64,000 nucleotides of DNA from Gemmatimonadaceae bacterium (GCA_013361935.1 JABFXC010000054.1:678-64677), one strand, 5' to 3'. Counted from the first letter of the stretch, positions 1-64,000 are shown. The notes: generated from the letters alone by a model not told the origin. Translations and numbers: made by a program.

Positions 1-1294
1 CCCGCGGATACGACACGCGCACGGCGCGCACGCTCGGCGTCGCGCGCCCGTCGGAGCCGAGGGTGATCGCGAGGCGCAGGTAGCGCCCGGGACCGGAGAG
101 CACGAGGCGGTCGGGAACGTCGCTCGGGTAGCGCGGCGGGAGCGTGCCCGGCGTCTCGTCGCGCGCCTCGAAGACGATTCCCGGCGGCAGCACGTCCGGA
201 TCGGCGAGGAGCGCGGGATCGTCGGCGACGACCGTGCGCACCTTGAGCCAGCTTCCCTCGGGGAGATCGGCGTCGATGGTGATCCGGTGCCACTGCGCGC
301 CCGCGGCTCCGCCGTCGAGCGCGGCGCTCACCCAGCGCCCCGCGGTCGCGAACCCCGACGCGAGGCGGAGCCGCGCGAGCCGGATCGCGCGGTGCACCGC
401 GGCGAGCCGCACCCCGCCGTCGTGCGCGGTGCAGGGTGCGGCGCAGCTCCCGCCCCAGAAGCGCGCGACCTCGGCGCCGTAGATCCGCCGCAGCGCGTCG
501 AGCGCGAGCGCCCCCTCGCCGAGCCCCTGCACCAGCGCGGCGAGCGGGACGTCGCCTGACGGTGCGCCCCCGCGGTCGACGCGAATGAGCCGCGGGTGCG
601 ACGCGTCGGCGACGAGGATCGCGTCGCCGTCCACCATCACCGCGATCGGTGCCGGGTGCGCGGGCAGTCCGTCGGGCGTGCGCGGCACGAACGACGCACA
701 GCGCTCGTGCCTGACGTTCCAGACGCTGATCTCCCCCGCCTTGCGGTCGGCGACGTAGATCCAGCCGTCGGGGGCGACGGCGACGTCGACGGGCTCCTGC
801 AGCCCGGCGACGAGCACGTTCGCGACGTGGCCGTCCTCCGGATCGACGACGACGACGCGGCCGGCGAGCGCGTCGGCGACGTAGAGCAGCCCGCGCCGAT
901 CGAGCGCCAGGCCTGACGGGCGCATGAAGACGCCGGGCTCGATCACGAGCGGGCACTCGCTCCCGTCGCAGCGGCGGACGAGCAGGACGCCGCGCTCGTC
1001 GACGCGGTAGATCTCCCCGTCGAGATCGACGGCGAGCCCGGCGAGCGGCTCGACCGGCGCCGCCAGCGGCACGGGCATCAGCTCGAGCACGTGGCGCGCG
1101 TCGTCGTAGAAGACGCTCGGCTCGAGCCGCGGCAGCCGCCATTCGTCGACGCCGGGCGCGGCGTTGCGGCGCTCGAAGTCCGCGGCGTAGCGGAGGACGT
1201 ACCAGGCCGCGTCGTTCGCGTCGCGGGCGAAGGTCGCCCGCGCCTGGAGCATCCGCGCCGTCGCGGTCGGGTCGAGGAGCGCCGGAAGGGTCAT
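1..1294 (-). CDS. eCIS baseplate protein with NHL-type repeats (Afp12/Pvc12 position); C-terminus lies beyond the window edge
   Basis: Absent from the ORF track because there is no stop inside the window. Manual minus-strand translation from the ATG at 1292-1294 (1 nt after the stop of the upstream gene) reads MTLPALLDPTATARMLQARATFARDANDAAWYVLRYAADFERRN... and stays open to position 1. Repeated blocks GLALDRRGLLYVADALAGRVVVVD, PVDVAVAPDGWIYVADRKAGEISVWN and PIAVMVDGDAILVADASHPRLIRVD look like NHL repeats. The gene sits directly after the baseplate J-like gene. Confidence 0.7.
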   Translation of the reverse strand, partial: MTLPALLDPTATARMLQARATFARDANDAAWYVLRYAADFERRNAAPGVDEWRLPRLEPSVFYDDARHVLELMPVPLAAPVEPLAGLAVDLDGEIYRVDERGVLLVRRCDGSECPLVIEPGVFMRPSGLALDRRGLLYVADALAGRVVVVDPEDGHVANVLVAGLQEPVDVAVAPDGWIYVADRKAGEISVWNVRHERCASFVPRTPDGLPAHPAPIAVMVDGDAILVADASHPRLIRVDRGGAPSGDVPLAALVQGLGEGALALDALRRIYGAEVARFWGGSCAAPCTAHDGGVRLAAVHRAIRLARLRLASGFATAGRWVSAALDGGAAGAQWHRITIDADLPEGSWLKVRTVVADDPALLADPDVLPPGIVFEARDETPGTLPPRYPSDVPDRLVLSGPGRYLRLAITLGSDGRATPSVRAVRVSYPR

Positions 1295-1295
1295 C

Positions 1296-3725
1296 TCAGA
1301 CGACCGTGCCGAGCGTGAGCGAGGTCGCGTCGAAGGAGACGCACTCCTCGGGGCCGAGCAGCACGCGGTCCACCTGCCCGGACTGCGACGGGCAGAGCAC
1401 CAGTTGGCCCTGCCGCGGCGTCGCCGCGCTCGGCGTACGCGTGAACCACGCGGTGAGCGACTCGACGCGCTCCACCCCTTCGGTGCGCGTGACGAGCGCG
1501 ACGAGATCGGCGATGTGCACCTGCCCGCCGAAGGGGAAGCCGGCGCCGTCGTCGCCGCCGGTGAGCGGATGCAGCCACCGCGCGAGCCGGGCGCCGACGA
1601 GGTCCTGCAGCTTGCTCCGCGTGTACCCCGGGCGCGCCTGCACCGCGACCTGCACGTCGCAGAAGCGGCAGTACTGCGGCGGGATGACGTGCACCTCGGT
1701 CGTCACGAGCCGGTGCGCGTCGAGCCAGCGGCAGACGGCGCGGAGGAAGGAGCGCGTCGGCACCGGTTCGCTGCCCGGGAGGTCCGGCACGACGACGACG
1801 CTCACCGCGCCCGCCGCGACGCGCGGGTCGATGCCCAGCGGACCGTTAGGCACCGTCCCGCAGCGCATCGCCAGCGGCGGGGTCGCCGGCACCGGCGTGC
1901 CCGAGCCGGGCCCCGCGGCGATCGTCCGCGCGAGCGGCCGGCGAAGCGGGATCACCACCGCGCGCGCGACGCGCACTTCCGGCGTCTGGCTGGCGATCCA
2001 CTGGAAATCCTCCGCGGTGACCGCGCGGCTGCGGCTGGAGATCTCCTTGCGGACGCGCTCCTCCGCCTGCTCCAGCGTCTCGGCATCGCGGCCGCCGGTC
2101 GCGGGCGTGGGGTTCACGACGCCGGCCACGCCGGCGGCGCCGCTGTCGAGCACCGTGATCGCGCCGACGCCCACCTCGCCGGCGAGCCCGCCGCCCCAGC
2201 GATAGCGCAGCGCGACCACGTCACCCGTGCCCGGAACCAGGGGGATGATCCGTCCGTGCTCGCCGTCGCCGCTGGCGATCGCGCCCGCCTCGCGGTCCAG
2301 GGTGTAGACGCGGGCGAACGGGTCGGCGGCCTCGATCGCGTCGGTCTCGCTCCACTCCTCGAGCGGCGTCGCCGCGTCCACCGACTCCTGCACCGCGAGC
2401 TGCAGCGTCCCGGCGAGCACGTTGCGGTTGGCGAGCGCGAACTCCTGGCGCGGCCGGCCCGTCCCGCGGCCGAGCACCTCGTTGCGGACCGTCGTCGCGT
2501 TGGTCGCGTGCACCGCGTTCAGCGTCACCATGCGCACGCGCATCGCCGGGGTCGCCGCCGTGCCCGGCGGGAGCGCCACGCGGAGCCAGCAGTGCACGCG
2601 CGTGACGGCGCGCAGCGCCGGGTCCAGCGGATGCGCGACCGGAGGCTGCGTCGCCGCCGCCTGCGCCGCCGCCGCGTCGATCCCGTGCTGGATCACCTCG
2701 CGGTACTTCGTCTCGGTGAGCGTGAGCATCGGCGACAGTGGCTGCAGCTGGTCCTGCATCGCCGCGCCTAACGCGAGGCACGCCTGCAGCGGCGTCGTCG
2801 TGCCGGCGGCGCGCATCGGCGCCCAGCTCGCGTCGGGAATCGGCCCGACGGTCATCGGAACGCCGAAGCGCAGCGTTCCCGAGCGCGTGAATCGTGCGGT
2901 GGTGTCGTCGATGCGCCCGGAGATCTGACGCATCGCGCCGGCGGGCGCGTCGTAGTACGCGAGCCAGTCGATCGGCACCGGCGTCTCGCCGGCGGCGACG
3001 GCGGTGCCGCAGCGCTCGTCGGCGGCGAGGTCGGGACGCTCGTCGTCGTCGAAGGAGACCGAGAGCGTCACGCGCGCGCCGCGGAAGCCGGCGTCGGCGG
3101 CGAGGTTCGCGGCGAGCCCGATCCAGAGGTACCGCTGCGCGGCGCGCCCCACGAGCCGCACCGGATCGAGCGGGACGTCCTTGAGCTTCGGCGTCTTCCC
3201 GTCCCAGGTGACGGTGAGCCACTCGGTGTCGTTCGCCGGCACCTGCGGGTAGACCGCCGGCGTCTCGCGCCCGCTCTCCGTGGCGAGCACGTCGTGGATG
3301 AACGGGTTTTTCGTCGTCGCGAGCAGCACCGGCTCCGCGGGCACGACGTCGATCGCGTCGTCGGTCTCGTACGAGGGCGGCGGCGTCCCGACCTTCGCGC
3401 GGACGCGCGCGCCGGCCGCCAGCGTGTAGCCGGCGAGCGTGGTCGGATCGGTGAGCAGCAGCGCGAGCATCGTCGACGCGGCGTGCGCGGGCTGCAGCCG
3501 CACGCCGAGGATCTTGAGCAGCTCGACCTGGGCGCTCTCCGGCACGCGATTGAGCCGCCATCCCACCTGCTCGGCGAGGTACGCGAAAAGCTGGATGAGG
3601 GCGATCCCCGGATCGCTCGCGTTGCGGTCCGTCCACTCCGGCGCGTAGACCGCGATCCGGCGCTCGAGCTCGGCGACGGTGCGGTCGAAGGTGATGTCGT
3701 CCAGCTGCGGCAGCTCGATCGGCAT
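1296..3725 (-). CDS. Baseplate J / T4 gp6-like baseplate wedge protein (Afp11/Pvc11 equivalent)
   Basis: 809-aa ORF. The N-terminus MPIELPQLDDITFDRTVAELERRIAVYAPEWTDRNASDPGIALIQLFAYLAEQ is the typical opening of baseplate J family proteins. There is a 2-nt gap to the upstream gp25-like gene. Confidence 0.85.
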   Translation of the reverse strand: MPIELPQLDDITFDRTVAELERRIAVYAPEWTDRNASDPGIALIQLFAYLAEQVGWRLNRVPESAQVELLKILGVRLQPAHAASTMLALLLTDPTTLAGYTLAAGARVRAKVGTPPPSYETDDAIDVVPAEPVLLATTKNPFIHDVLATESGRETPAVYPQVPANDTEWLTVTWDGKTPKLKDVPLDPVRLVGRAAQRYLWIGLAANLAADAGFRGARVTLSVSFDDDERPDLAADERCGTAVAAGETPVPIDWLAYYDAPAGAMRQISGRIDDTTARFTRSGTLRFGVPMTVGPIPDASWAPMRAAGTTTPLQACLALGAAMQDQLQPLSPMLTLTETKYREVIQHGIDAAAAQAAATQPPVAHPLDPALRAVTRVHCWLRVALPPGTAATPAMRVRMVTLNAVHATNATTVRNEVLGRGTGRPRQEFALANRNVLAGTLQLAVQESVDAATPLEEWSETDAIEAADPFARVYTLDREAGAIASGDGEHGRIIPLVPGTGDVVALRYRWGGGLAGEVGVGAITVLDSGAAGVAGVVNPTPATGGRDAETLEQAEERVRKEISSRSRAVTAEDFQWIASQTPEVRVARAVVIPLRRPLARTIAAGPGSGTPVPATPPLAMRCGTVPNGPLGIDPRVAAGAVSVVVVPDLPGSEPVPTRSFLRAVCRWLDAHRLVTTEVHVIPPQYCRFCDVQVAVQARPGYTRSKLQDLVGARLARWLHPLTGGDDGAGFPFGGQVHIADLVALVTRTEGVERVESLTAWFTRTPSAATPRQGQLVLCPSQSGQVDRVLLGPEECVSFDATSLTLGTVV

Positions 3726-4920: not shown

Positions 4921-6323
4921 CGGGCGGATCCCTCGCGATAGGGCGGCAGCTCCATCCCCGGGCGCGACGCGGAGAAGCGCGTTCGCAGCCCGTCGGAGCC
5001 GAGCGTGTGCACGGTGCGGGTGACGTAGTAGAAGCCGTTGAAGGGCGGCCGATAGCCGCGGATCTCCACGTGCCGGCCCGGGCGCAGCCGCGGAAGCCCG
5101 ATCGCCGTCCCCTCGATGGTCAGGAGCTCGCGCGCCTTCTTCCGCAGCAGCGTCTGGGCGTACCAGGTGGCCCGCGTGTCGTCGAGGTTCGAGACGTTAG
5201 GCGGGCCGGCGCGATTCTCGCGCCCGGGAAGGAAGTGCGCGCGGACGAGCGGACCGGGAGTGAGGGTGCCGTCCACCGCCGGATCGACGTGGAGCTCGTC
5301 CTGCACGATCGCGCCGAGCGCGACGCCGCGGACTTCGCGCGGCGTGTGCGGATCGCGGTGCCGGCCGCGCACCTCGGCGGCGGTGAACTGGTCGACGACC
5401 TTCAGCGTCGGCGCGAACTCGAGCAGGCTCTGCTCGCGGTCGAGGCGGAAGATCACGTCCTGCCGCTCGATCGGGTTGGCGCGGCCGCGGTACGGCTCGA
5501 AGCGGAGCACCAGCGGCGCGTTGGTGCGGTCGAGGCTCGCGAACTCGAGGCAGACCTCGTAGTCGAGACGCTCGGCGAGCTTCTGGATGAACTCGAGGTA
5601 CGACTGTCCCTTCTGCACCGCGTCGTTCAGCCCCTGCGAGTCGTTCGTGGCGAAGGAGGGATGATCGACGAGCGGATCGGCGGGGGAGGAGATTGGATAG
5701 TGCGCGCGCTGGAGGACGCGGCGCACCATGCTCGTCTCGCTCAGCCGGTCGAGCTCGATGCGGCGCTCGGTGCGGTCCTTGAGCGTGTTGAGGTCGTCCT
5801 CGCCGGAGATCACGACCTGCGCGCCCTGGCCAGCGGCGAAGGTGAAGCGCATGTCGGTGATCGGGCCGGCGACCATCGGCACCCAGCGCTGCGGGTCGGC
5901 GGTGACGGGCGCGGCGGAGGCGGCGCGGTCGGGCCAGTAGCGGAAATCGACGCGCAGCCGGTCGCCAAAGCCGAGCACCGCGAAGTCGTCGTACTTGAAG
6001 CGCGGCCAGTACGGCGTGCGCCGCGGGTCGAGCCGCTCGCGGGCGTCGATGGGGCCGGCGCTGCCGCCCGTCGGATCATCGGAGGAGCGGTCCGCCGCGG
6101 TCGAGAGATACGCGTTGTTGAGGGTGAGCGAGTACGTGGCGAGCCCGCTGTTCGTGAGCGTCACCTCGGCGCGGACGACGTCGGCGTGGATGTCGGGCGG
6201 GAGGACGTCGCCGGCCTCGCCCTGGGGCTGGAGGGTGGCCGCGAGCTTGGCGAGGCGGACGCCGGGGGCGAAGTAGGCGCTCCCCGGACGCGGACCGTTA
6301 GGCGCTGGCGCGGTGACGGTCAT
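4917..6323 (-). CDS. Baseplate hub, phage late control D / gp27-like
   Basis: 468 aa. The C-terminus LLTIEGTAIGLPRLRPGRHVEIRGYRPPFNGFYYVTRTVHTLGSDGLRTRFSA resembles gpD-type hub proteins. Translationally coupled on both sides. Confidence 0.7.
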   Translation of the reverse strand: MTVTAPAPNGPRPGSAYFAPGVRLAKLAATLQPQGEAGDVLPPDIHADVVRAEVTLTNSGLATYSLTLNNAYLSTAADRSSDDPTGGSAGPIDARERLDPRRTPYWPRFKYDDFAVLGFGDRLRVDFRYWPDRAASAAPVTADPQRWVPMVAGPITDMRFTFAAGQGAQVVISGEDDLNTLKDRTERRIELDRLSETSMVRRVLQRAHYPISSPADPLVDHPSFATNDSQGLNDAVQKGQSYLEFIQKLAERLDYEVCLEFASLDRTNAPLVLRFEPYRGRANPIERQDVIFRLDREQSLLEFAPTLKVVDQFTAAEVRGRHRDPHTPREVRGVALGAIVQDELHVDPAVDGTLTPGPLVRAHFLPGRENRAGPPNVSNLDDTRATWYAQTLLRKKARELLTIEGTAIGLPRLRPGRHVEIRGYRPPFNGFYYVTRTVHTLGSDGLRTRFSASRPGMELPPYREGSAR

Positions 6324-7180: not shown

Positions 7181-7789
7181 TCAGATCCCCAGCGCGTCCA
7201 TCGCCGCGCCAGCGCCGCCGGGCAGCATCGACGCGCCGACGCGATACAGCCCCTCGTGCGCCAGCTCCAGTGTCTCGATCGCGATCTCACTCGACTTCGC
7301 GTTGAGGCCGGGGCCGTGCATCTTCTCCGGCAGCGCGTTCCGGCAGAACCACACCGCGATCGGCAGCCGGTCGAGCACGGGAAGGCCGAACGAGGTCGGA
7401 CCGCCGGCGAGCGCGCTGATCCCCGTGCCGCGGTCGGTGAGCATGACGAGCACGTTCTTGCGCGCCGGGTCGGCCGTCTTGTAGAGCGTCGCGTAGTACC
7501 AGTCCCAGAGGTCGGGGTTCAGCGTCACCCCCCGCTTGAGAACGAGGTTGGGATACTTCCCCCACTTCACGAACTTTCGCGGCGCGGTGTTCGACCCGCC
7601 CTGCCGGTACTCCTCGGTCTCCATCTCGGCGTCGAGCCCCGAGACCTCGGAGAAGGTGCCGACGATCGCCGCCTTGGCGACGCCTAACGCCGCGCCGGCG
7701 ACGTCGGCGGCGCCCATGCTCGACAGCGGCTTGGCGTCGAGCATCATGACCGTGAAGTCGAAGACAGGGACGGGGTTGACGAGGGTCAT
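7181..7789 (-). CDS. Tail tube protein 2 (T4 gp19-like, Afp5 position)
   Basis: Last 202 codons of tracked ORF 7181..8515, starting MTLVNPVPVFDFTVMMLDAKPL. Motifs FSEVSGLDAEMETEEYRQGG and KYPNLVLKRG parallel tube protein 1. 2-nt gap to the upstream sheath gene. Confidence 0.85.
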   Translation of the reverse strand: MTLVNPVPVFDFTVMMLDAKPLSSMGAADVAGAALGVAKAAIVGTFSEVSGLDAEMETEEYRQGGSNTAPRKFVKWGKYPNLVLKRGVTLNPDLWDWYYATLYKTADPARKNVLVMLTDRGTGISALAGGPTSFGLPVLDRLPIAVWFCRNALPEKMHGPGLNAKSSEIAIETLELAHEGLYRVGASMLPGGAGAAMDALGI

Positions 7790-7791
7790 CG

Positions 7792-9633
7792 CTACTCCAG
7801 GACCTCGATCACGCCCTCGCTCCGGCCGAGGCGGAAGACGAGGAACTCTCCCGGCGCGGCGACCGCGACCCCGAGCTCGACGACGAAGCGCCCGGCGGCG
7901 ATCGACTCCGGCGGGTTCACGCTCGCGTCGCAGCGCACGTAGAACGCTTCCTCGGGGCGCTCGCCGCGCAGCACGCCCGCCTCGAAGAGCGGGACGAGCA
8001 CGCCGAGCGCGATCGTCGCGACGTGCATCCAGAGCGCCGGCGTGTTCGGCTCGAAGACCAGCGGCTCGAGCGCCGCGCGCATCCGCAGCTCGACGGCGGT
8101 GAGCACCCGCCGCACGGGCACGAAGCGCAGCCAGGTGTCGGTGGAGAGCGTGCGCGCGCCGAACAGCTGCACGCCGTAGCCTGGGTACGGACGCATCACG
8201 TTCACCGACGCGCCGGCGATCCCGCTCGCCCCCGGCTCGGGCGTGTAGAGCGCGGCGTGCGCGGCGTCGTCGACCGGCGCAGCGACGCCGACCACCTGCC
8301 GCAGCGTCTCGTTCGCCGGAGCGACGCCCGGCCCGCGCGCGAGGTCGCGCCGCGCGAGGACCCCCGCCGCGTACGCCGCCGGCGGCACGGTGAGCGTCGG
8401 CGCGCCGATCATCTCCTGCGTCAGCAGCCAGGGCCAGTACATCGCCCCCGCCGACATCTCGAGCGTGTCGGCGAACCCCTCGAGCTGGACGAGCCGGTCG
8501 AACTGCGCGATCCACTGCCGCGCCTCCGGCGCGCCCGGCGGGACGTAGCGGCCCGTCGCCGCGTCGGGCATCTCGGGGACGGCGAGCAGGAGCAGCATCC
8601 GCCAGCGCGTCTCGACGCAGCGCGCGAGGAGTGTCCGCTGCGTGGCGAAGAGAGGGCTCATCGCGCCGCCGGCGTAGAGCGGCATCGAGTCGAACAGCGG
8701 CAGCGTCACCGGCTCGCCGGCGACGTCGACCACCGCGCCGGAGGGCACGACGTCATCGCAGGGGATGAAGCACCCCTCGCGCTCCGGCGGCGCGAGCGTC
8801 ACCTGCCGCACCGGACGGTCGACGCGGCGCGCGTGGAGGTCGGGGACGTCGCAGGCGGTGACCTCGTCGAGGAGGAGCAGCCGCTCGAGCCCCGTCGCCT
8901 CGCGCTCCGGCACGCCGGGCACGCCGGCCATCTCGGCGCGCGCGCGATCGAGCTCCACGGCGTCGTCGAAGCGCGGGCGGCGCACGGTCTCCACCCAGCA
9001 GCGGCGGCCGCCGTTCGCGAAGTACGCGCGCACCGCCGAGCCGAGAAACGTTCCGTCGTCGCGCGGCTCGCCGAAGGCGAGCAGGTAGTCGCGCCAGTCG
9101 TCGCAGCGCGCCGCGTCCAGTGCCGGGAGCACCGTCATGCCTAACGCGCCGGCGTCGCGGCGGTAGACGATGTCCGCGACCCGCGCCCACGCGCGGTGCA
9201 TCCCCGGCATCGGGTTGACGCGGAGCTCGAGCTGCGCGTCGTCCGGTGCGCGCTCGGTCCCCGTCGCCGCCGCGTTCCCGCGCACGACCATCAGCTCGGC
9301 GAACGGTCCGTCCTGCTCGGCGGCGACGAGCGCGAAGACGATGCTCTCGCCGGCGAGCATCGGGATCCAGAGCGCGCCGCTCGACACGGCGAGGTTCCGC
9401 GTCTCCGGAACGAGCACGCGCGCGCCGCCGAGCACGAGCTGGAATCCGGCGACGTCGGCGCGGAAGTCGTGGCCCGTCGCCGGGCTTCCGGTCAGCGCCG
9501 ACGGCGTCGTCCCGTCGCGCACCCGCGGCTCGAGCCCGACGAAGCCGACGACGTCCGTGCGCGCGACGACCACCGGCGCCACGCGCGGACGCCGCTCGAC
9601 GTAGACCCCCGGGACGCGGTAGGCGACTCCCAT
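7792..9633 (-). CDS. Contractile tail sheath protein 2
   Basis: 613 aa. N-terminus MGVAYRVPGVYVERRPRVAPVVVARTDVVGFVG and C-terminal RFVPVRRVLTAVELRMRAALEPLVFEPNTPALW...GEFLVFRLG are sheath-family hallmarks. Confidence 0.85.
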   Translation of the reverse strand: MGVAYRVPGVYVERRPRVAPVVVARTDVVGFVGLEPRVRDGTTPSALTGSPATGHDFRADVAGFQLVLGGARVLVPETRNLAVSSGALWIPMLAGESIVFALVAAEQDGPFAELMVVRGNAAATGTERAPDDAQLELRVNPMPGMHRAWARVADIVYRRDAGALGMTVLPALDAARCDDWRDYLLAFGEPRDDGTFLGSAVRAYFANGGRRCWVETVRRPRFDDAVELDRARAEMAGVPGVPEREATGLERLLLLDEVTACDVPDLHARRVDRPVRQVTLAPPEREGCFIPCDDVVPSGAVVDVAGEPVTLPLFDSMPLYAGGAMSPLFATQRTLLARCVETRWRMLLLLAVPEMPDAATGRYVPPGAPEARQWIAQFDRLVQLEGFADTLEMSAGAMYWPWLLTQEMIGAPTLTVPPAAYAAGVLARRDLARGPGVAPANETLRQVVGVAAPVDDAAHAALYTPEPGASGIAGASVNVMRPYPGYGVQLFGARTLSTDTWLRFVPVRRVLTAVELRMRAALEPLVFEPNTPALWMHVATIALGVLVPLFEAGVLRGERPEEAFYVRCDASVNPPESIAAGRFVVELGVAVAAPGEFLVFRLGRSEGVIEVLE

Positions 9634-10107: not shown

Positions 10108-12222
10108 TCAGGTCTGGGTCGCGAAGCCGGTGATCTGCTCGATGCGGAAGATGACGAACTCGGCCGGACGCACGATCGCGACGCCGATCTCACAGATGAG
10201 CCTGCCGTTCTGGACGTCGTCGACCGTCATCGTCGACTCGTCGCAGCGCACGCGGTACGCGTCCTCGGGGCGGCGGCCGAAGAGCGCGCCGTCGCGCCAC
10301 TGCGTGTGGAGGAAGGCGCTCACGCTGTCGACGACGCGGCTCCAGGTGTCCGGAGCGTTAGGCTCGAAGACCACCCACTGCGTGCCGCGGTCGATCGACG
10401 CCTCGAGAAAGATCAGGAAGCGGCGGACGTTGATGTAGCGGAACTCGGGATCGCTGGAGAGCGTGCGGCCGCCCCAGACCCGGATGCCGCGCCCCTCGAA
10501 GCGGCGGATGACGTCGACGCCGCGCGGATTGAGCACGTCCTGCTCGCCCGTCGTCACGTACGCGCGCAGCCCCGTCACCCCGCGCACGACCTCGTTCGCC
10601 GGCGCCTTCCACACCCCGCGGTCGTTGTCGACGCGCGCGTAGATGCCGACGACGTGCCCCGACGGAGGCAGCCGCAGCGTGTCGTCGCCGACGGGCACCT
10701 CGACCCACGGCGTGTAGTACGCCGCGTACGACGAGTCGTAGAGATTGCGCGCGGCGAGCAGCGCGTTCACCGACTGCGGGTCCGATGGCGCGTCGAGCAC
10801 GGCGAAGCGGTAGCGCAGCCGCTCGGCCTGCGCGATCAGCGCCGTCTGCACCAGCGCCTGCGTCTCGCCCGGCGCGGCGAGGATGCGCACGTCGTCGATG
10901 TCGGCGAGCGCCTGCAGCCCGGTGCGCAGCCCCGGCCCGCCGTCGACGCCGACGATGTGCGTCCGCGCGCCGACCACCGGTGCGCCATCGGCGCCGCTTC
11001 CCGGCGCCGGACCGCTCGCCTGGCCGTTGAGGTTCACCGGCATCACCGCCTCGGTCGCCGGATCTTCCGCCGAGCCGCCGAACGCCCACGGCGGCTCGAC
11101 CCAGACGAGGCTCGAGCGCTGGTTGATCACCGTCGAGTAGTGGCGGCGCCTGACGGCCGGCGCGGCGTTCCCGGTCCAGGCGAGCCCGCGGAACACCTCC
11201 GTCGTCCGCGACGCGGTGTCCTCGACGGTGACGTCGATCTCGCGCACGATGACGACGCCGGCGACCGTGACGTTGTTCACCGGGGCGCTCACGCGGACCC
11301 GGCTCCCGGGCAGGATCTCGCGCACCGTCAGCTGCGTCACGACCATCGCGCCGCCGTGGACGAGCATGATCGACGCGCCGGGATAGAGCGACGTCGTCGA
11401 CTGCAGCTGGATGATGTCCGTCGCCACGGCGATCGCCGCCGTCACCGCGACCGGAGGCCGGTCGGCGGGAACGACGGTGATCATCAGCCGGTTGCCCCAG
11501 TCGCCCGGGCTCCGCGCGTAGAAGCGCGGACCGGCCGCCGGAGTGACGGGCGCGGTCGCGCTCGAGAATCGCACGATCACCCGGTCGGGCTCGAGCAGCG
11601 TCGGCGTCGCGCCGGCGCCGACGGTCACCGTCACCGCGCCCGTCGCGAAGTCGACCGCCGTGATCCCCATCGCCGTGAGCGCGGTGGGACCGGCGCTGAT
11701 CGGGGCGCCGTTCGCGCCGGTGATCGACACCGTCGTCGTGCCGGCGGGCGTCAGCGGCGCGACGGGGCCGGTCGGGGCGATGCCGACGAGCGAGGAGAGG
11801 AAGAGAACGTTGGACCCGCTCCGCACCTCCACGGTGCTCCGCAGCCGCGTCACCGAGCCCTGGTTGAGCTGGTGCACGGCGAAGGCGAACCCCGGCCGCA
11901 GCGCGCGCGCGATGTAGGCGCGCCGTCCGCCGTTGTCGAAGAAGGCGCGTACCGCGTGGCCGAGGAAGCGGTCGGGGCCCGGCGCATCGGCGGGCGCGCC
12001 GAAGGTCCGCTGGTAGGCGCCGAAGTTCGTGACGAGCAGCGGCGCGTCGTCCGGCGTGATCGCGAAGCCGCCGCCGGCGCCCACCGGGGGCAGCACCCCC
12101 GGCGCCGGCCCGCGGTCCGATTCCCCGACGAAGCCGGCCGTGCTCGTGCTCACTCCCTCGATCGCCTTCAGCCGGGCGGGGATCTCCTCGATGAATACGC
12201 CTGGGGATAGATACTCGGGCAT
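10108..12222 (-). CDS. Contractile tail sheath protein 1 (long form, 704 aa)
   Basis: MPEYLSPGVFIEEIPARLKAIEGVSTSTAGFVGESDRGP at the N-terminus. C-terminal INVRRFLIFLEASIDRGTQWVVFEPNAPDTW...AEFVIFRIEQ. Carries a large Thr/Ala/Val-rich central insertion. Confidence 0.9.
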   Translation of the reverse strand: MPEYLSPGVFIEEIPARLKAIEGVSTSTAGFVGESDRGPAPGVLPPVGAGGGFAITPDDAPLLVTNFGAYQRTFGAPADAPGPDRFLGHAVRAFFDNGGRRAYIARALRPGFAFAVHQLNQGSVTRLRSTVEVRSGSNVLFLSSLVGIAPTGPVAPLTPAGTTTVSITGANGAPISAGPTALTAMGITAVDFATGAVTVTVGAGATPTLLEPDRVIVRFSSATAPVTPAAGPRFYARSPGDWGNRLMITVVPADRPPVAVTAAIAVATDIIQLQSTTSLYPGASIMLVHGGAMVVTQLTVREILPGSRVRVSAPVNNVTVAGVVIVREIDVTVEDTASRTTEVFRGLAWTGNAAPAVRRRHYSTVINQRSSLVWVEPPWAFGGSAEDPATEAVMPVNLNGQASGPAPGSGADGAPVVGARTHIVGVDGGPGLRTGLQALADIDDVRILAAPGETQALVQTALIAQAERLRYRFAVLDAPSDPQSVNALLAARNLYDSSYAAYYTPWVEVPVGDDTLRLPPSGHVVGIYARVDNDRGVWKAPANEVVRGVTGLRAYVTTGEQDVLNPRGVDVIRRFEGRGIRVWGGRTLSSDPEFRYINVRRFLIFLEASIDRGTQWVVFEPNAPDTWSRVVDSVSAFLHTQWRDGALFGRRPEDAYRVRCDESTMTVDDVQNGRLICEIGVAIVRPAEFVIFRIEQITGFATQT

Positions 12223-30193: not shown

Positions 30194-30199
30194 CGCTGC

Positions 30200-41851: not shown

Positions 41852-41862
41852 GCGACACAGCA

Positions 41863-50612: not shown

Positions 50613-53114
50613 TCACCCGATCAGGGTGTCGATCTCGGTCGCGACGTCCTTGCTGGTCCAGTAGCGCGTATGCGTCCCCGCGCCGAGGCATCGCTCGGTG
50701 CGGCGATCGCCCGCCCGGCAGAAGCCGGTCGACCAGACGTCGTCCCAGTCCTCCGGCTGCCAGAGCGTGCGGCCGACGTAGTCTCCGGTGGTGTAGAGGT
50801 TCACCCACTTGCTGACCGCGAGGGCGCGGGGATCGGGAGTGCGATCCTCGAAGTCGACCGGCTTCGCGTCATCGTCGCTCGCGTCCACCCAGCGATAGAG
50901 ATGGGGAAAGTTCTTCGCGTAGAGCTGGCGGAGGGGCGATCCCATCGTGAGCAGCCTGACGTCCATCCCATCGAGCGGGACGCTCGGATCCTGCGTCGCG
51001 ACGAGAAAGCGAAGGAAGTCGGCGCTGATCACCGTCCCCTGCGAGTGCGCGACGATGACGATGCGGTCGAAGTATGGGCGTTCCTGCTCCGTCGCGGTGG
51101 CCGGCGCCTTCCGCGCGACGATGTAGCGCAGGAGCGACGCGTAGCGCTCGGCCATCCGCGCTCGCGGCGTGCCGTCGACGGGCGACTCGCGCAAGTAGTT
51201 GTCCACGTCGAGGAGGATGCCGAGGGCGGGACGGGCGCGATTCGCCAGCGTCTTCACGCGCAGCCAGAGCGCGGCGATCGTTGCCGCCGACGCGCCGAAG
51301 ACGATCGCGATGCGCGTGAGGATCGGCGTCATCCCGTTCGGATCGAGGAGCCTGCGCAGCCATGGCCACGACGGCAGCGCGCCGACGTCGCGCAGCGTGT
51401 CGGCCAGTAGGCCGATGAGGATGAAGGCGAGGACCGCCGTGACGAGCACTAGGCCCGCGGCGCGGAGGAGCGCGAAGCCGTCGGTCATCCAGTCGCCGAG
51501 GCGCGACCAGCGCGGAGAGTCCGCGGGCGGCGTCCAGATGCTCGTCGAGATCACGATGACGACGAGCCACGACGCGAGGATCCCGGCGAGGAGCACGATC
51601 ACCAGCGCCAGCCGCAGCCCGGAGGTCCCGCTCTGGGCGATGAGCTTCTCGAGGAAGCGGTGCGTCTGCTCCCCCGGCTGTCCCGGCGGGTCGACCTCGT
51701 CGCGCGGCAGGTCGGGGGCGAGGAAGCGGCTGACGATCGGCAGCGGCGCGCTGGCCGTCGCGTGCGGGAAGATGTCGAGTCGCTCGTGATATCGCGTCGC
51801 GACGTTCAACAGCGACTCGTAGAGCACGAGCGCCGTCATGATGAAGAAGAAGACCGTGACCGCGATGGTGACGCGCGCGGTCCACGAGGCGCGCCCGGCG
51901 CGCGCCTTCTCCGGTTGCGTGCGAGCCGCGCGGTAGACGAGCAGCCGCAGCCCCGACGCGACGAACATCGCCAGCCAGAGCGCGATCCAGCTCAGCATGA
52001 GCGCGACGTAGCTCCACTGGAAGCCGACGAAGCCGACGTTGCGCAGCCGCTCGACGAGAGTCGGCGCGGCGACGAGGGAGCGGCTCGCCCAGACCGGGAC
52101 GATGACGGCGAGGACGATTCCCCATCCCCAGCCGAGCGCGCCGGGGCGCGTCGAGTGGTAGCGGGCGAGGAACCAGGCGAAGGTCGCGATCGCCAGGACG
52201 ACGGCGAGCACCGCGATCGCGACGGACCCGATCCCCTCCGTCCTCGCCTTCGGCGCGTACACGATGGCACCCACCGCTCCGCCGACGGCGAGCAACGCGA
52301 CCGTGATGACGACTCGGGCGGCGTGCCTCATCCGCGCCGCGAAGCCCGCGACCATCATCGCGATGACGACCAATCCGATCGCGGCGATCGCGACCGCGAT
52401 CGGGAATCGCAGCGAGGGACGGAGCGCGGCGGGGACGAAGAGGAAGAGCCAGTCGAGCATCAGCACCGTCGCGACCGGCACCGCGATGGTGAAGAGCCGC
52501 ACCGCCATCGCGTGTACCCGCCGGTACCTCCCCGCGGCCCGCGCGTGGCGGGAACCCTGGTCGTCGGCGCGCGCCTCCTCGAAGGCGATGTCGAGCGTCT
52601 TCCGGCCGAGGTGACAGACGTGCTGGAGGAGCTGGTAGAGCGCGCCGAGCATCCGGAGGAACCCCGCGCCGACGCGCGAGAGGTCGGCCCAGTGCATCTC
52701 GTAGATGTGGACCGTGGTCTCCGTGATCTCCCTGGTCTCCTTCTCTTTGCGCCGGCGCGTACCCGTGAGCTCGATCGTCGCGTACGGCTGCCGGTCGCTC
52801 CGGTATCCCGCGAGCTGCCGTCGCATGAACTGCACGTCGGGGCGGAACGGCTTCAGCTCCGTGTCCAGCTCGACGCGGTCCTCGAAGCGGAAGGCGTTGC
52901 GGATGCGCGCCCAGAACGAGGGGCGGGTCCCGTCCCGCGCGGGACCGGCGCCGACCGGGTCGGTGGGGAGGATGACGTGCTGCTCGCTGAACGCGCGGTA
53001 GTCGGACGCGTTAGGCGCGCAGCGGACGAGCAGCTCGGCGATGCTCCGCGCGGTGGCGTCCTGCGGCGGACTGCCGACGCCATGGACGGCGATAACGGCG
53101 ACGTGCTCGGGCAT
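50613..53114 (-). CDS. Alpha/beta-hydrolase (lipase-like) split by a ~450-aa polytopic membrane insertion
   Basis: 833 aa. N-terminal VAVIAVHGVGSPP (strand plus HG oxyanion-type motif). About 11 predicted TM helices between roughly residues 200 and 620. C-terminal IVIVAHSQGTVISADFL (G/A-x-S-x-G elbow) and LLTMGSPLRQLY. Confidence 0.7.
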   Translation of the reverse strand: MPEHVAVIAVHGVGSPPQDATARSIAELLVRCAPNASDYRAFSEQHVILPTDPVGAGPARDGTRPSFWARIRNAFRFEDRVELDTELKPFRPDVQFMRRQLAGYRSDRQPYATIELTGTRRRKEKETREITETTVHIYEMHWADLSRVGAGFLRMLGALYQLLQHVCHLGRKTLDIAFEEARADDQGSRHARAAGRYRRVHAMAVRLFTIAVPVATVLMLDWLFLFVPAALRPSLRFPIAVAIAAIGLVVIAMMVAGFAARMRHAARVVITVALLAVGGAVGAIVYAPKARTEGIGSVAIAVLAVVLAIATFAWFLARYHSTRPGALGWGWGIVLAVIVPVWASRSLVAAPTLVERLRNVGFVGFQWSYVALMLSWIALWLAMFVASGLRLLVYRAARTQPEKARAGRASWTARVTIAVTVFFFIMTALVLYESLLNVATRYHERLDIFPHATASAPLPIVSRFLAPDLPRDEVDPPGQPGEQTHRFLEKLIAQSGTSGLRLALVIVLLAGILASWLVVIVISTSIWTPPADSPRWSRLGDWMTDGFALLRAAGLVLVTAVLAFILIGLLADTLRDVGALPSWPWLRRLLDPNGMTPILTRIAIVFGASAATIAALWLRVKTLANRARPALGILLDVDNYLRESPVDGTPRARMAERYASLLRYIVARKAPATATEQERPYFDRIVIVAHSQGTVISADFLRFLVATQDPSVPLDGMDVRLLTMGSPLRQLYAKNFPHLYRWVDASDDDAKPVDFEDRTPDPRALAVSKWVNLYTTGDYVGRTLWQPEDWDDVWSTGFCRAGDRRTERCLGAGTHTRYWTSKDVATEIDTLIG

Positions 53115-54572: not shown

Positions 54573-57500
54573 TCAGGCCACCGCCGCAGCGAATGCCTGG
54601 AACAGATCCCCCGGCAATGGATGCCGTAGCCGCCACGTCACCGCCATCGGTAGCTCACCGACGTGCTTCACATACGTCGCCGGCCCGAGAAAGTAGAAGG
54701 CGCGATCATCGGCATTGAGTCGCGCGAAGAGAAGGATCTGGTGCCCCATCGCGACGTGATTCTGGTACCGGCGCCCCATCGGACTCCCGGCGCGCGTAGT
54801 CGACTGGCTCTCCCAGTGAATGAGCTCCCGGCTGATCGCATAGTCCCGATAGCGCGTCGTCGGCGAGAACTGGCCGCTCGTCTTGTCGAGGGTGAAGACG
54901 AAGAGATCCGCCTTCAGCGCCTTGTCGAAATACAGTCCCTCACGCCAAGGCCGCACCTTCACCTTGTCGTCCGCGCCGCAGGCAGCGAGCATCTCGAGGC
55001 GCGCGTACCGGGCGTGCACGTTCAGCGGGACTTCAGGCAGCACATCGAGCGCGAGCGCCACGTGCGGGATGCGCTCGGCGAGAACGTCGAACAGCTCGAT
55101 CAACTCGACCCGGATCGCGGCGTGCTTCCAGACCAGCCGCGCACCTTCTTCCAACGTCGTGTCCGACTCCGCGATCCGGTCGAGCAGTTGTACCACGAGC
55201 ATCCTGAGCAGCCGGCGCTCGCGCAGCGGCAGGGAGGCGACCGCTGGCGGCTCGTCGCCGCGCAGCCACTGCCGCCAGGTATCGAGTCGCTCCCGGTCGT
55301 CCACATGGAGAAGACGGCCGCACGCACGCCGCAGCGTCTCTTCTTCGTCTCCCGAGACCACCGGGCCGAGCCCCGCTGCCGCTCGCAGGTCGGCCCATGA
55401 GTACTTCCCGGTGTAGACGTCCTCGAGATCGAGCCCCGACCCCCGCAGAAACTGACCGAGCGTGATCCCCGGCTGCTCGGTGGCGAGTGCCTTCAGCTCC
55501 GCCGCCTTCTCGCTCCAGCGGTTAGGCACCGAGTATCTGATGTTCTCGAGCACCCGCTCGGTCGCCTTCCGATCGAGCTCCATGTGGCAGCCCGCCGGAA
55601 GGAAGGGGAATCCTTCGGCGACCTGCCGAGTCACGGATGCTCGACTCCCGCCGAGCAACGCCTGGAAGCGCCGATCGTAGCGGAACTCCTTCCGATGCTC
55701 ACCGACGAAATCGAGGACGGTGCACAACGTCTTGTCCGGAGCCTTTCGCAGCCCGCGGCCGAGCTGCTGGAGGAAGAGCACCGCGCTGTCGGTCGGCCGG
55801 AGCATCAACAGCGCATCCACGGCCGGAACGTCGACGCCTTCGTTGAAGAGATCGACCGAGAAGAGGACGTTGATCTCACCCTTTGCGAGCCGGGCAAGTG
55901 CCTGGCGTCGCTCGTCGTCGGGCGTGTCCGCCCATACCGCGACCGCGCGCACCCCCTGCTCGCTGAACACCCGCGCCATGTACCGCGCGTGAGCGACGCT
56001 GACACAGAAGCCGAGAGTGCGAAAGCGATCGATGCGGCCGACGTGCTTCGCGAACTGCTGAAGGACGCTGCGCGCCCATGCGTCGTTCGCGGTTATGAGA
56101 TTCGTCAGCCCTTCGACGTCGTAGCCGGTGCCTCGCTTCCAGGGGATTTCGCGCAGGTCGAGATTGTCGGCGACTCCGTAGTACGCGAAGGGAGTGAGCC
56201 GATGCTGATCGATCGCGTCCCAGAGCCGCAGCTCGGCGGCGATGCGGTCGTCGAACCAGTGGAGGATCGGCAGCCCATCGCTGCGCTCCGGTGTCGCGGT
56301 GAGCCCGAGAAGCTCGACCGGCGCGAGCTTCGACAACAACCGCTCGTACGACGCCGCCGCCGCGTGATGGAACTCGTCGATGATGACGACGTCGAAGTGC
56401 TGCGGACTCAGGTCGGCGAGGCCACTCGCGCTCAGAGACTGGATCGAGGCGAAGACGTGCTCGAAGTCGCGTGGCCGTTTGCCGCCGACCCAGAGCTCCC
56501 CGAAGTTTGCGTCACGCTGCGCATGCGCGAAGGTGCGGCGGCTCTGCTCGAGGATCTCCTCGCGGTGGGCGACGAAGAGAAGCCGGGCGCGCTTGAGCGT
56601 ACGACGAAGCCGCGCATAATCGACCGCAGCCATGACTGTCTTGCCGGTCCCAGTCGCGGAGACAAGCAGGTTGCGGTGACGCCCCTGCTGACGGGCGAGC
56701 TCGATCTCCTCGAGAAGCCGCTCCTGAAACGGCTCGAGGCGGATCTCGATCGGACTCAGTGTGAGACCTGCCTCCGCCTTTTCATTCGTGCCGATTGCTT
56801 CGACGAACCGTTCGCGGTCGTACGGGGCGAAGTCAGGCTGCTGCCAATAGCTGTCGAAGACGGCTGCAATCTTCTCGATGACGGGCCGATTGCGGGCGCT
56901 CGACACGCGCACGTTCCACTCGAGCCCAGTCACCTGCGCCGAGTGCGTGAGGTTCGAGGAGCCGACGTAGGCAGTCGAGTAGCCGGAATCGCGATGGAAG
57001 AGCCACGCCTTCGCGTGCAGCCGCGTACCGCCCGTCTCGTACGACACGCGCACCTCGGCGCCGAGCTCGGCGAGGAGGTCGAGCGCCTCGGCTTCGGTCG
57101 AACCCGTGTAGGTCGTGGTGAGCACGCGGATCGGACGGCCAGCGTCGACATGTCGCTGGAGCGCTTCGCGCATCGGGTTGATCCCGGTGCGTCGGATGAA
57201 GGCCATGACGATGTCGATCCGGTCCGCGGAGGCGATCTCCGCCTGGATCTGGTGTCCGACGCGTGGCTCTCCGGGCGCGTTGGTGAGGAGCGTCGTGTCG
57301 AGGAGCGGGATCAGCGGCGCTTCGAGCTCGTCGACGCTGCCATCCGGCTTTCGTCCGCGGATCGCGCGGAGGATCCGGGCCGGATCGACGGGACGCTCGG
57401 CGCCGAGTGCCTCGGTCTTCGGCTCCTGCGCGATCTGATCGACGAGGCGGCGCGCGATGGCGGTGCCAAGGTTGGCTCGCTCCTCGAGAGGGAACGTCTC

Positions 57501-57668: not shown

Positions 57669-57719
57669 CCCGCCGAAGATACGCCTAACGGGCTGCTTGG
57701 CCAGGCTGGCTGCTTCGGG

Positions 57720-62720: not shown

Positions 62721-62730
62721 GATCACGCCC

Positions 62731-64000
62731 CTACGCCCTCACCAACTTCTTGTACGCAATCCGATGCGGCTGATCCGCATCCGGTCCCTTCCGCTTCTTC
62801 AGGTCCTCGATGTACGCCTGGAAGTTCCCCTCGAACCAGACGACTTCCGAGTTCCCCTCGAACGCCAGGATGTGCGTCGCGACGCGATCCAGAAACCACC
62901 GATCGTGCGAGATGACGACAGCGCACCCCGCGAAGTCCAACAGCGCCTCTTCAAGAGCACGCAGCGTGTCGACGTCGAGGTCGTTGGTGGGTTCGTCGAG
63001 CATCAGCACGTTCCCGCCTTCCATCAACGTCTTCGCCAGGTGCAGCCTGTTCCGCTCGCCCCCTGACAGGTCGCCCACCTTCTTCTGCTGATCCGTCCCC
63101 CTGAAGTTGAAGGAGCTCAGGTACGCCCGCGAGTTGATCTCCTTCTTCCCCACCATGATCTGCTCCTGCCCTTTGCTGATCTCCTGCCACGCCGTGTTCC
63201 CCGCGTTCAGCGTCCGGTTCTGATCCACGTACGCCAGCTGCACGGTCTCGCCGATCTTCAGATCACCCTCGTCTGCCGTCTCCTTGCCGACGATCATCCG
63301 GAAGAGCGTCGTCTTTCCGGCGCCGTTAGGCCCGATGATCCCGACGATCCCGCCCCGCGGCAGGCTGAACGACAGTCCCTCGAACAGCAGCTTGTCCCCG
63401 AACGCCTTCTTCAGGTTCTTCGCGATCACGACGTCGTTGCCTAACCGCGGCGCTGGGGGGATCACGATCTCGTTCGCGGCGATCTTCTCCTGCTGCGCCT
63501 CGCTCGCCAGCTGCTCGTACTGCTGGATGCGCGCCTTGCTCTTTCCCTGGCGCGCGCGCGGCGACATCCGCACCCACTCGAGCTCGCGGTCCAGCGTCCG
63601 CTGCCTGGCGCTCGCCTGCTTCTCCTCGGTCTGCAGACGCGTCTTCTTCTGCTCCAGCCAGCCGCTGTAGTTCCCCTCGTACGGGATCCCCTTTCCGCGA
63701 TCGAGCTCGAGGATCCACTTCGCGACGTTGTCCAGGAAGTAGCGATCGTGGGTGATCGCCACCACGGTCCCGGGATACGCCTCGAGGTGATGCTCGAGCC
63801 ACGCCACGCTCTCCGCGTCGAGATGGTTCGTCGGCTCGTCGAGGAGCAGCATGTCGGGCTCCTCGAGCAGCACCCGGCAGAGCGCGACGCGGCGCTTCTC
63901 TCCACCCGACAGCTTGCTCACGTCGGCATCGGCCGGCGGCAGGCGCAGGGCGTCCATCGCGATCTCGACCTTGTTGTCGAGGTTCCACAGGTCGTGCTGG
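62731..64000 (-). CDS. ettA: ABC-F ATPase, energy-dependent translational throttle protein EttA; N-terminus beyond the window edge
   Basis: The frame is open to position 64000 ([22 protein letters not shown]...). Two ABC signatures [13 protein letters not shown] and [13 protein letters not shown], second Walker [10 protein letters not shown], and a linker rich in Q/E/K/R. The tracked ORF begins at an internal Met. Confidence 0.85.

Follow-up and report, generated by a model that had tools for sequence, protein, structure and literature searches.

The octamer GCCTAACG occurs 28 times, 13 times on the plus and 15 times on the minus strand, in a 64-kb stretch of DNA from a Gemmatimonadaceae bacterium (GCA_013361935.1 JABFXC010000054.1:678-64677, numbered 1 to 64,000 and called the window in what follows), and we classify it as a hyper-abundant genome-tagging word. 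It is enriched in three clades of the family, it is maintained as a DNA word rather than through the peptides that it encodes, and its copies are spaced evenly without regard to orientation. We robustly infer that resident DNA of these lineages is pressed to carry the exact duplex tag within ~0.5-2 kb everywhere, in either orientation and with little gain from a second copy nearby. What reads this tag is a matter for more guarded statements. Tentatively, we take the word to be an uptake or self-recognition tag of certain Gemmatimonadaceae, similar to the DNA uptake sequences (DUS) of Neisseriaceae and the uptake signal sequences (USS) of Pasteurellaceae, and thus a candidate for the first DNA-uptake-type "self tag" outside the Proteobacteria.

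The word in the window and among relatives

Dinucleotide-preserving shuffles of the window (n = 100) held 0.97 copies of the word on average and 5 at most, and against an order-3 Markov expectation of 0.54 it is the top-scoring 8-mer (z ~34), with no close second. The 15 bases on each side are unconserved apart from a mild preference for G after the word (14 of 28 copies), and the mean pairwise identity of the flanks (0.31) equals background. Such random flanks point to a free-standing, sharply bounded word that is not part of a repeat element; repetitive extragenic palindromes (REP) and miniature inverted-repeat transposable elements (MITE) are likewise ruled out, since the copies lack conserved flanks. 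Gene calls were our own, composition-based and trained on the codon usage of the lineage (coding fraction 0.91). Under these calls, the copies within coding sequences (CDSs) read CCT-AAC ten times, TTA-GGC ten times and GTT-AGG once (14653), five copies form stop codons (CGT-TAG at 14940, 23090, 30198 and 41846; GCC-TAA at 42451) and two are intergenic (14917 and 57683). Three variants preserve the core, at 40825 (CCCTAACG, read TTA-GGG), 55520 and 63439. The preliminary description of this DNA had counted by hand 28 copies in the same strand split, three one-mismatch variants, and, with a variant included, 10 CCT-AAC, 11 TTA-GGC or TTA-GGG, 1 GTT-AGG and 5 stops; each of these numbers was matched exactly by the search. 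The 28 exact copies, followed by the variants, are:

1844..1851, minus strand: sense, baseplate-J-like gene, G-CCT-AAC-G (Pro-Asn)
2766..2773, plus strand: antisense, gene 1296-3725(-), CG-TTA-GGC (Leu-Gly)
5195..5202, minus strand: sense, CCT-AAC, gene 4917-6323(-)
6296..6303, minus strand: sense, CCT-AAC, gene 4917-6323(-)
7682..7689, plus strand: antisense, TTA-GGC, gene 7181-7789(-)
9139..9146, plus strand: antisense, TTA-GGC, sheath-like gene 7792-9633(-)
10356..10363, minus strand: sense, CCT-AAC, sheath gene 10108-12222(-)
12403..12410, minus strand: sense, CCT-AAC, gene 12233-12949(-)
14653..14660, plus strand: antisense, the sole GTT-AGG reading, gene 14015-14749(-)
14917..14924, plus strand: intergenic; forms a direct pair with the next copy, 23 bp away
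14940..14947, plus strand: gives the TAG stop (CGT-TAG) of gene 14942-17968(-)
16556..16563, plus strand: antisense, TTA-GGC, gene 14942-17968(-)
23090..23097, minus strand: gives the TAG stop of gene 22751-23095(+)
27401..27408, minus strand: sense, CCT-AAC, ferritin-like gene 26790-27569(-)
30198..30205, plus strand: gives the TAG stop of CHASE histidine kinase gene 30200-31978(-)
32649..32656, plus strand: sense, CCT-AAC, gene 32101-33021(+)
35395..35402, minus strand: antisense, TTA-GGC, symporter gene 33783-35546(+)
37137..37144, minus strand: antisense, TTA-GGC, GHMP kinase gene 36272-37585(+)
37724..37731, minus strand: antisense, TTA-GGC, gene 37582-38412(+)
39557..39564, plus strand: sense, CCT-AAC, gene 39465-40853(+)
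40369..40376, minus strand: antisense, TTA-GGC, gene 39465-40853(+)
41846..41853, minus strand: gives the TAG stop of gene 41243-41851(+)
42451..42458, plus strand: gives the TAA stop (GCC-TAA) of gene 42046-42456(+)
45601..45608, plus strand: antisense, TTA-GGC, variable N-terminus of UPF0182 gene 42820-45732(-)
48078..48085, minus strand: antisense, TTA-GGC, beta-lactamase-family gene 47471-48763(+)
53009..53016, minus strand: sense, CCT-AAC, gene 50613-53114(-)
57683..57690, plus strand: intergenic, at the edge of the defence islet
63324..63331, minus strand: sense, CCT-AAC, ABC-F gene 62731-63999(-)
40825..40832, minus strand: end variant CCCTAACG, TTA-GGG
55520..55527, minus strand: end variant GCCTAACC, within the islet's Type IV restriction/helicase gene
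63439..63446, plus strand: end variant GCCTAACC, antisense, ABC-F gene
A5 to G variant GCCTGACG, 13 sites: plus strand 554, 709, 911, 11148, 24020, 25220, 44597, 47487 and 50954; minus strand 30329, 32322, 58001 and 59940 (7.2 expected, not significant in the window alone)

Relatives were sampled with the window's UPF0182 protein as probe, one genome per species, which gave 79 loci; these are fragments of metagenome-assembled genomes (MAGs) of 2-23 kb, that is, loci rather than closed genomes. Gemmatimonadaceae MAGs make up all of the best matches (identity 90% to 48%); other Gemmatimonadota and outgroups come next. Enrichment of the word, 13- to 65-fold, extends across three separate Gemmatimonadaceae clades, namely clade A, to which the window belongs (150 copies in 236 kb, ~3.8 expected), the weaker clade B (28 copies in 127 kb, 1.5-2.2 expected) and the very dense clade C (42 copies in 35.8 kb, 0.65-3.9 expected), with densities of 4.4-12 copies per 10 kb over the 23 positive loci. 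The 24 other Gemmatimonadota loci, nine of them from Gemmatimonas, hold a single copy in 476 kb (1-8 expected), and the UPF0182 loci of outgroups at similar GC hold essentially none. Flank identity across the positive loci (0.27-0.33) is that of background. Contigs of word-positive MAGs include JBJMNK010000144.1, JANMBU010000045.1, CAWHHI010000020.1 (1 Mb long) and DATBNO010000083.1, and those of word-free sisters QHVE01000033.1, DASUSM010000256.1 and DASSOG010000019.1. Window-like contigs derived from metagenomes (n = 18, GC 63-74%) also show random flanks and copies on both strands, at ~7 extra copies per 10 kb; both the metagenome and the viral sets were ascertained through the word itself, which was corrected for by counting extra copies only. 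The word is thus a signal of whole lineages and not a local one, being carried by 23 independent genomic loci and 18 metagenome loci. Pure extrapolation to a genome of 3.7-4.0 Mb, the size of published soil Gemmatimonadetes MAGs of 69-70% GC (PMC7305173), would give ~1,700 copies at the density of the window and >4,000 at the densities of the dense lineages.

All candidates for alternative dialect words in word-negative Gemmatimonadota (AGCCAATA in L032, TTCACCAA in L023, and others) were rejected as ordinary repeats with conserved flanks (identity 0.5-0.9). A Pyrinomonadaceae MAG of the Acidobacteriota (L076) has ten copies of CATAGACG in 22.7 kb where 0.57 are expected, four on the plus and six on the minus strand and with random flanks (identity 0.30); a different soil phylum may thus have a hyper-abundant, free-standing word of its own. 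A further metagenome contig (L347, JGI10216J12902_106184151, 2.96 kb) is of low complexity, rich in CTA, TAG and GTA and not coding-like; it holds 16 copies of GCCTAACG on both strands.

Selection, spacing and genomic context

The word itself, and not the encoded peptides, is under selection in the DNA, as the preliminary description had proposed; this rests on a codon census, on one conserved proline codon, on non-synonymous changes that create the word and on conservation at orthologous sites. In clade A, 71 of 94 TTA codons (76%) and 45 of 190 CCT codons fall within the word, and TTA is used 1.37 times per 1000 codons as against 0.28 in negative relatives, a 5-fold difference. The codon alignment of UPF0182 contains a universally conserved Q-P-N-E, encoded as CAG-CCN-AAC-GAG. 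In 14 loci, which represent all three positive clades, the proline codon is CCT and so completes the word; in every one of ~25 negative lineages it is CCC or CCG. Clade C acquired further copies through a two-base non-synonymous change from TCG to TTA (Ser/Ala to Leu) in the conserved DYP[AS]G block, and again through a change from ATC/CTG-CGG to GTT-AGG. Orthologous sites were compared in eight phylogenetically independent close genome pairs, with composition-matched 8-mers from the same alignments as controls; close pairs were used because synteny relative to the window is too poor for a large-scale site analysis outside UPF0182. The word was kept at the orthologous position in 44 of 62 instances (71%), where 24.8 (40%) were expected (p = 8e-7). 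Copies do turn over: where L001 and the window align, over 7.3 kb, none of the 8 copies of L001 is found in the window, and the UPF0182 copy at 45601..45608 is common only to the window and its closest relative, L015.

Two of the six frames hold a stop (GCC-TAA and CGT-TAG), so that they are usable at gene ends only. Among the four open frames, 116 of 121 in-CDS copies of clade A lie in the two that place T4 at the wobble position (CG-TTA-GGC, 71 copies; G-CCT-AAC-G, 45 copies), and the other two together account for 5. The variant GCCTGACG is ~3-fold over expectation in pooled clade A, at 5 times the rate per kb of negative relatives, and it sits in the frames that the A-form avoids (GC-CTG-ACG, 20; C-GTC-AGG-C, 16; CGT-CAG-GC, 12). 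In clade C, the four open frames are used near-equally (11, 11, 11 and 6 copies), the G5 variant is lacking and the ends of the word are looser; the preferred ninth base also differs among subclades. Such differences between clades resemble dialects, as if the reader varied slightly in its specificity. A general depletion of one-mismatch neighbours, which would point to conversion, was not seen (209 observed, 166 expected).

The word shows no polarity. The strand counts are 112 plus to 104 minus over the 23 loci, without heterogeneity per locus, and 49 to 51 in the 18 independent metagenome loci, and the orientation of the word bears no relation to gene-strand bias or to locus-wide or local GC skew, the latter being a weak proxy for replication direction. 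Spacing is far more even than random. In most loci the gaps have a coefficient of variation of 0.5-0.73, whereas copies placed at random would give ~0.95 (Stouffer Z = -5.3, p = 6e-8); gaps below 0.2 of the mean make up 2.8% (18% expected) and gaps above 2.5 times the mean 1.1% (8.2% expected). Dense genomes show an exclusion zone below ~300 bp and a gap mode of 500-700 bp, and one clade C locus has ten copies spaced 376-690 bp, some clade C gaps being shared orthologous gaps and hence not independent. Neighbouring copies have the same orientation in 95 cases and opposite orientations in 98, and per-strand spacing is no more regular than with permuted strand labels, so that regularity is a property of the strand-combined set. 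Such orientation-blind spacing argues against readers of the Chi or FtsK-orienting polar sequence (KOPS) type and for recognition of the duplex. The preliminary description had also singled out several copy-free stretches of the window, and these are not statistically notable: spacing overall is more even than random and not patchier, and ~1.5 gaps as long as the longest (6.5 kb) are expected among 27 exponential gaps with a mean of 2.3 kb.

The window contains an extracellular contractile-injection-system cluster (sheath, baseplate J, gpD-like), ordinary chromosomal genes and the 950-aa UPF0182 gene. Its phage-tail-like injection cluster (1-17100) has the highest density of the word and behaves as long-resident DNA rather than as a recent acquisition; the high density that had been claimed for these genes was confirmed (12 copies in 16.6 kb, compared with 16 in the other 47.4 kb). 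Density climbs from 3.8 per 10 kb in genes with the lowest, atypical GC content at third codon positions (GC3) to 12.3 in those with the highest, compositionally the most native, a trend that holds although the word itself lowers GC3. The low-GC defence islet (53300-57668) contains no exact copy of GCCTAACG, which is unremarkable, since the Fic/helicase islet would hold only ~2 copies at mean density. PADLOC assigns to it a SoFic system (E = 1e-115) and a neighbouring PLD-helicase-DUF3427 gene that matches a Type IV methyl-directed restriction enzyme (E = 2e-245). Two other short sequences in the window also exceed expectation. GGGGAATC occurs 10 times (1.5 expected; 3 plus, 7 minus), at 12119, 21484, 26187, 31964, 33746, 36480, 44587, 52116, 55605 and 60674, and is possibly a second, perhaps polar, word; the palindrome CAGTACTG has 4 sites (1669, 16986, 45173 and 59683) where 0.12 are expected.

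Phages, integrons and possible readers of the word

A scan of viral contigs for close word pairs returned mostly chance matches and tandem repeats, together with genuine phage contigs of 63-69% GC that carry dispersed copies on both strands. Among the latter, IMGVR_UViG_3300015615_001045 (L200 and L080 in our numbering), with genes for small and large terminase, portal, protease and major capsid protein, is the best case and carries 12 copies over 21.5 kb, or 5.6 per 10 kb, 6 of them in sequence outside the ascertainment; five give the TAA stop of a phage gene and three read TTA-GGC, the permissive placements found in the host. The word is also enriched in phages L106, L113 and L120. No copy is found in L281, which is 94% identical to one of the enriched phages, and 33 further phage loci of high GC (357 kb) yield 3 copies between them. 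Terminase and portal probes for related phages found at most 40% identity, barring the same contig and one 94% relative. At 9300-9490 of L200 (1980-2170 of L080), four copies lie within 190 intergenic bp directly upstream of the small-terminase gene, two on the plus strand (overlapping, at a 7-bp offset) and two on the minus strand (at a 14-bp offset), a cos/pac-like or operator-like position. Such a cluster upstream of terS is unsupported as a recurrent feature of phages, as L106 has a pair ~0.5 kb from a putative terS and the 15-mer double is found in other viral contigs at chance level or in heptamer tandem repeats. Viral contigs L436, L437, L442, L427 and others (30-70% GC) carry tandems of (GCCTAAC)n or near-variant heptamers, unrelated to the dispersed copies of the host type.

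The 7-base core of the word, GCCTAAC/GTTAGGC, is letter for letter a canonical integron attC core, a point absent from the preliminary description: the attC core consensus is RYYYAAC for R'' and GTTRRRY for R', and R'' of the aadB attC is GCCTAAC (PMC12901181). A metagenome scan for two same-strand copies ~560 bp apart yielded 120 contigs (L284-L403), 66 of which are integron gene-cassette arrays; the 18 window-like contigs described above form the second class. In the arrays, the copies are all on one strand, every 400-700 bp, and each opens a 94-142-nt attC site (GCCTAAC...GTTAGGC) that folds into a long bulged hairpin. The arrays, from soil and with a mean GC of 0.60, include L298, L338, L290, L344, L383, L395, L316 and L360 and contain several recurrent attC families, for example GCCTAACG-GATCGCGCTTAAGCT; that of L360 adjoins a divergent tyrosine recombinase and that of L345 an IS110-family transposase. 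The genomic copies were rejected as attC sites: a lax structural test admits 2 of 226, neither of which has a better fold than shuffled sequence, and the same test is passed by 243 of 291 copies in the true metagenome arrays. The logic of an integrase is, moreover, reversed in the genomes, where the AAC-breaking GCCTGACG is enriched and the Y-degenerate GTCTAACG, GCTTAACG and GCCCAACG are not. Thus, the letter identity is most probably coincidental, at odds of ~1 in 250-500 for this one motif, and it calls for caution in motif-based searches for integrons or uptake sequences in metagenomes. Four metagenome loci of 57-61% GC (L368, L389, L350 and L284) have 4-8 copies with random flanks and no detectable attC structure, and could represent word-bearing lineages outside the Gemmatimonadaceae of 65-71% GC or arrays with atypical attC sites.

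How might a word of this kind come to be so abundant? The likeliest reader belongs to a DNA-uptake or transformation pathway, and the word would then be a functional analogue of DUS and USS. Fragments that bear it would be preferentially taken up and recombined, and word-containing alleles would spread by molecular drive, with protein and codon constraints setting where the word settles, that is, in the CCT-AAC and TTA-GGC frames with a wobble T, at stops and in short intergenic spacers. A second copy on one fragment would add nothing, which would leave an exclusion zone and even spacing. Even spacing is reportedly also an outcome of the uptake-drive model of Maughan, Wilson and Redfield from 2010. 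Among known systems, only uptake sequences combine non-palindromy, strand symmetry, a density of ~1 per kb, frame restriction, even spacing, depletion from foreign DNA and dialects, and it is from this combination that we tentatively infer an uptake-receptor reader, and transformation, in these organisms. Weak and non-specific support comes from published soil Gemmatimonadetes MAGs with the same GC, which have homologues of ComEC and belong to recombining populations (PMC7305173).

Several observations weigh against this uptake scenario. Nearly all bacteria have ComEC, and the homologues published for Gemmatimonadetes are of the "two-domain" form (PMC7305173). The 8-bp core has no flanking preference and is shorter than DUS or USS. 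More than 80% of ~220 copies lie in CDSs, and the inverted pairs in terminators that typify DUS are absent, with 2 opposite-strand pairs within 100 bp among these copies. Known uptake sequences extend through whole families, with dialects. Here, in a neighbour-joining tree of one protein, UPF0182, clades A, B and C are separate and interleaved with negative ones, and the positive clades have word-free sisters at 62-71% amino-acid identity (L010/L011, L040 and L060). The patchiness does not hinge on details of the tree, because the UPF0182 of clade C is farther from that of the window (48-51% identity) than is that of word-free Gemmatimonas (55-58%). Three clades with the same word and sisters without it require several losses or horizontal spread of the reader. 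Finally, a pure uptake drive would not lead one to expect the density of a host on a lytic phage, although a temperate lifestyle or hitch-hiking on uptake could accommodate it. The likeness to DUS and USS suggested in the preliminary description remains the best analogy and draws new support from even, orientation-blind spacing and enrichment in native genes, but inverted pairs in terminators are missing and the distribution looks patchy rather than family-wide on the single-protein tree.

The main rival, to which we grant a modest chance, has the word bound by an abundant chromosomal protein, specific to the lineage and to the sequence, that needs a site at regular intervals; the protein would be nucleoid-associated or architectural, or the site a repair landmark, for example for strand-discrimination nicking. 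Such a protein explains the orientation-blind spacing (exclusion zone <300 bp, mode 500-700 bp) and the copies in phages that share the cytoplasm, including the four-copy cluster upstream of terS, at least as well as uptake does, and gain and loss of a single gene fit the patchy distribution. Against it, we know of no nucleoid protein that reads an exact non-palindromic 8-mer at thousands of sites, so that there is no precedent for such reading of an asymmetric octamer; the known readers of 8-mers at such density are polar translocases or nucleases. The word is conserved under selection, as has been shown for HIP1 (highly iterated palindrome 1; PMC5861425), a cyanobacterial octamer for which a role of this kind has been suggested. 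Unlike the word, however, that octamer is a palindrome with a link to methyltransferase sites. A cause without function, proposed for HIP1, would be a sequence-specific bias of mutation or repair, for instance a mobile methyltransferase with a nuclease of the very-short-patch type, by which near-cognate sequences would be turned into the word wherever DNA replicates in the cell. A bias of this kind would account for the phage copies, for patchiness like that of mobile restriction-modification, for strand symmetry and for the lack of the word in recent DNA, and a persistent drive also predicts excess conservation at orthologous positions. We nevertheless regard it as improbable, as a one-position ratchet can at most pool the word with one neighbour (~4 each expected in clade A) and falls far short of the 40-fold excess that 150 copies represent; the changes that create the word involve more than one base and fall at several positions (TCG to TTA; ATC-CGG to GTT-AGG), one-mismatch neighbours are not depleted overall (209 against 166 expected), and neither an exclusion zone nor even spacing is predicted. 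That the word is a polar signal, Chi for RecBCD/AddAB or KOPS and architecture imparting sequences (AIMS) for FtsK, is largely refuted and retains very little probability. The word is an over-represented 8-mer whose density in the window, ~1 per 4.6 kb per strand, is similar to that of Chi in E. coli, and a nuclease-attenuating tag could benefit phages. Yet the copies divide 13 to 15 in the window and 112 to 104 over the 23 loci, in agreement with the lack of strand bias noted in the preliminary description; they show no relation to GC skew, follow each other in random orientation, are regular in the strand-combined set only and are enriched 40-65-fold, far above known Chi sites. An ordinary repeat family, chance or an assembly artefact is refuted, with negligible probability, for none of 100 shuffles reaches 6 copies, the flanks are random, and in-frame copies occur in conserved genes, in MAGs of many independent studies and in metagenomes of the Joint Genome Institute (JGI).

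The two remaining rivals invoke mobile elements. Perhaps a family of phages or gene-transfer agents uses the word as a signal for packaging or recognition, so that host DNA bearing it is preferentially transduced and this bias drives its spread. The four copies of L200 do sit within 190 bp just upstream of the small-terminase gene, the usual location of cos or pac, in a phage with host-level density elsewhere, and L106, L113 and L120 are enriched. This is a single clear case, however, with the pair of L106 ~0.5 kb from a putative terS, the 15-mer double elsewhere at chance or in heptamer tandems and the 94%-identical L281 without copies, and headful packaging needs no site every 0.6-2 kb, so that we consider the idea quite improbable. 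An integron-related origin, in which genomic copies are attG-like target sites of the integrase or relics of cassettes, is very improbable in our estimate. It would draw on the identity with the attC core consensus and with aadB R'', on the 66 of 120 metagenome matches that are true cassette arrays with 94-142-nt hairpins, one of them by a tyrosine recombinase, and on a genomic gap mode of 500-700 bp that resembles the length of a cassette. The genomic copies, in contrast, have random flanks and no attC structure, lie in-frame in conserved housekeeping genes on both strands and tolerate variation in a manner opposite to that of an integrase (GCCTGACG enriched; GTCTAACG, GCTTAACG and GCCCAACG not), there is no known reason why target sites should be enriched, and a chance match to the motif is expected in ~1 in 250-500 cases.

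Returning to the tag reading, a wider and more doubtful proposition is that certain soil Gemmatimonadaceae and their phages carry an exact 8-bp "self" mark every 0.5-2 kb for a putative orientation-blind reader, which would confer either uptake specificity, for the first time outside the Proteobacteria, or a new class of genome-wide landmark, serving for example recombination, repair or the folding of the chromosome, that the gene for this reader has been gained or lost repeatedly within the family, and that phages copy the tag. Sequence-specific DNA uptake is documented in two proteobacterial families only, and the function of HIP1 is still unsolved after decades; a third, independent case sits in an abundant, barely cultured soil phylum. 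Its gains and losses form a natural series, in which each of the three positive clades can be set against a sister that lacks the word, so that simple comparative genomics could find the reader gene, and the spacing rule (exclusion zone, 500-700 bp mode, blindness to orientation) constrains the mechanism. The word could also be used as a signature for binning and host assignment, and its sharing with phages offers a marker for predicting the hosts of uncultured viruses. Should it prove to be an uptake tag, it would attest directly to self-biased transformation as a force that shapes the genomes of soil bacteria.

Comparison with known systems

The library searched holds no paper with the word and none that links Gemmatimonadetes to uptake sequences, and a 2025 survey describes uptake-enhancing sequences as confined to Pasteurellaceae and Neisseriaceae (10.1101/2025.10.24.684340). 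The DUS of Neisseriaceae (dialects of the GCCGTCTGAA type, with the minor pilin ComP as reader) and the USS of Pasteurellaceae are likewise short, non-palindromic and present at ~1 per kb; they share with the word equal use of the strands, the absence of replication polarity, tolerance mostly within genes in a few preferred frames, even spacing, depletion from foreign DNA and dialects, and a reading-frame bias of DUS and USS within CDSs has been reported (10.1101/2025.10.24.684340). They differ in length and context, DUS having 10-12 bp and USS a 9-bp core with AT tracts, as against 8 bp without flanking preference. About half of the known DUS and USS lie in terminators, often as inverted-repeat pairs (10.1101/2025.10.24.684340), whereas the word is almost never found in inverted pairs or terminators, is patchy over three clades of another phylum and reaches host density on a phage.

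Chi, KOPS and AIMS are, like the word, over-represented non-palindromic 8-mers throughout the core genome, but they are strand-biased with respect to replication and active in one orientation, while the word is strand-symmetric and its enrichment an order of magnitude higher. Integron attC sites are imperfect palindromes of 57-142 nt between cassettes, in one orientation, and the Gemmatimonadaceae copies lack the palindrome, lie in-frame in housekeeping genes, occur on both strands and tolerate a change in the AAC triplet on which integrases depend. HIP1 (GCGATCGC) is a cyanobacterial octamer that is 15-300-fold over-represented inside and outside genes and more conserved between genomes than control octamers, independently of codon conservation (PMC5861425). 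Both are octamers found within and between genes, conserved beyond controls and non-random in their spatial distribution. HIP1 is a palindrome with methyltransferase sites, occurs in most of a phylum and has a periodicity of 10-90 kb (PMC5861425); the word, by comparison, is asymmetric (not its own reverse complement), patchy at the level of genera and regular at 0.5-2 kb.

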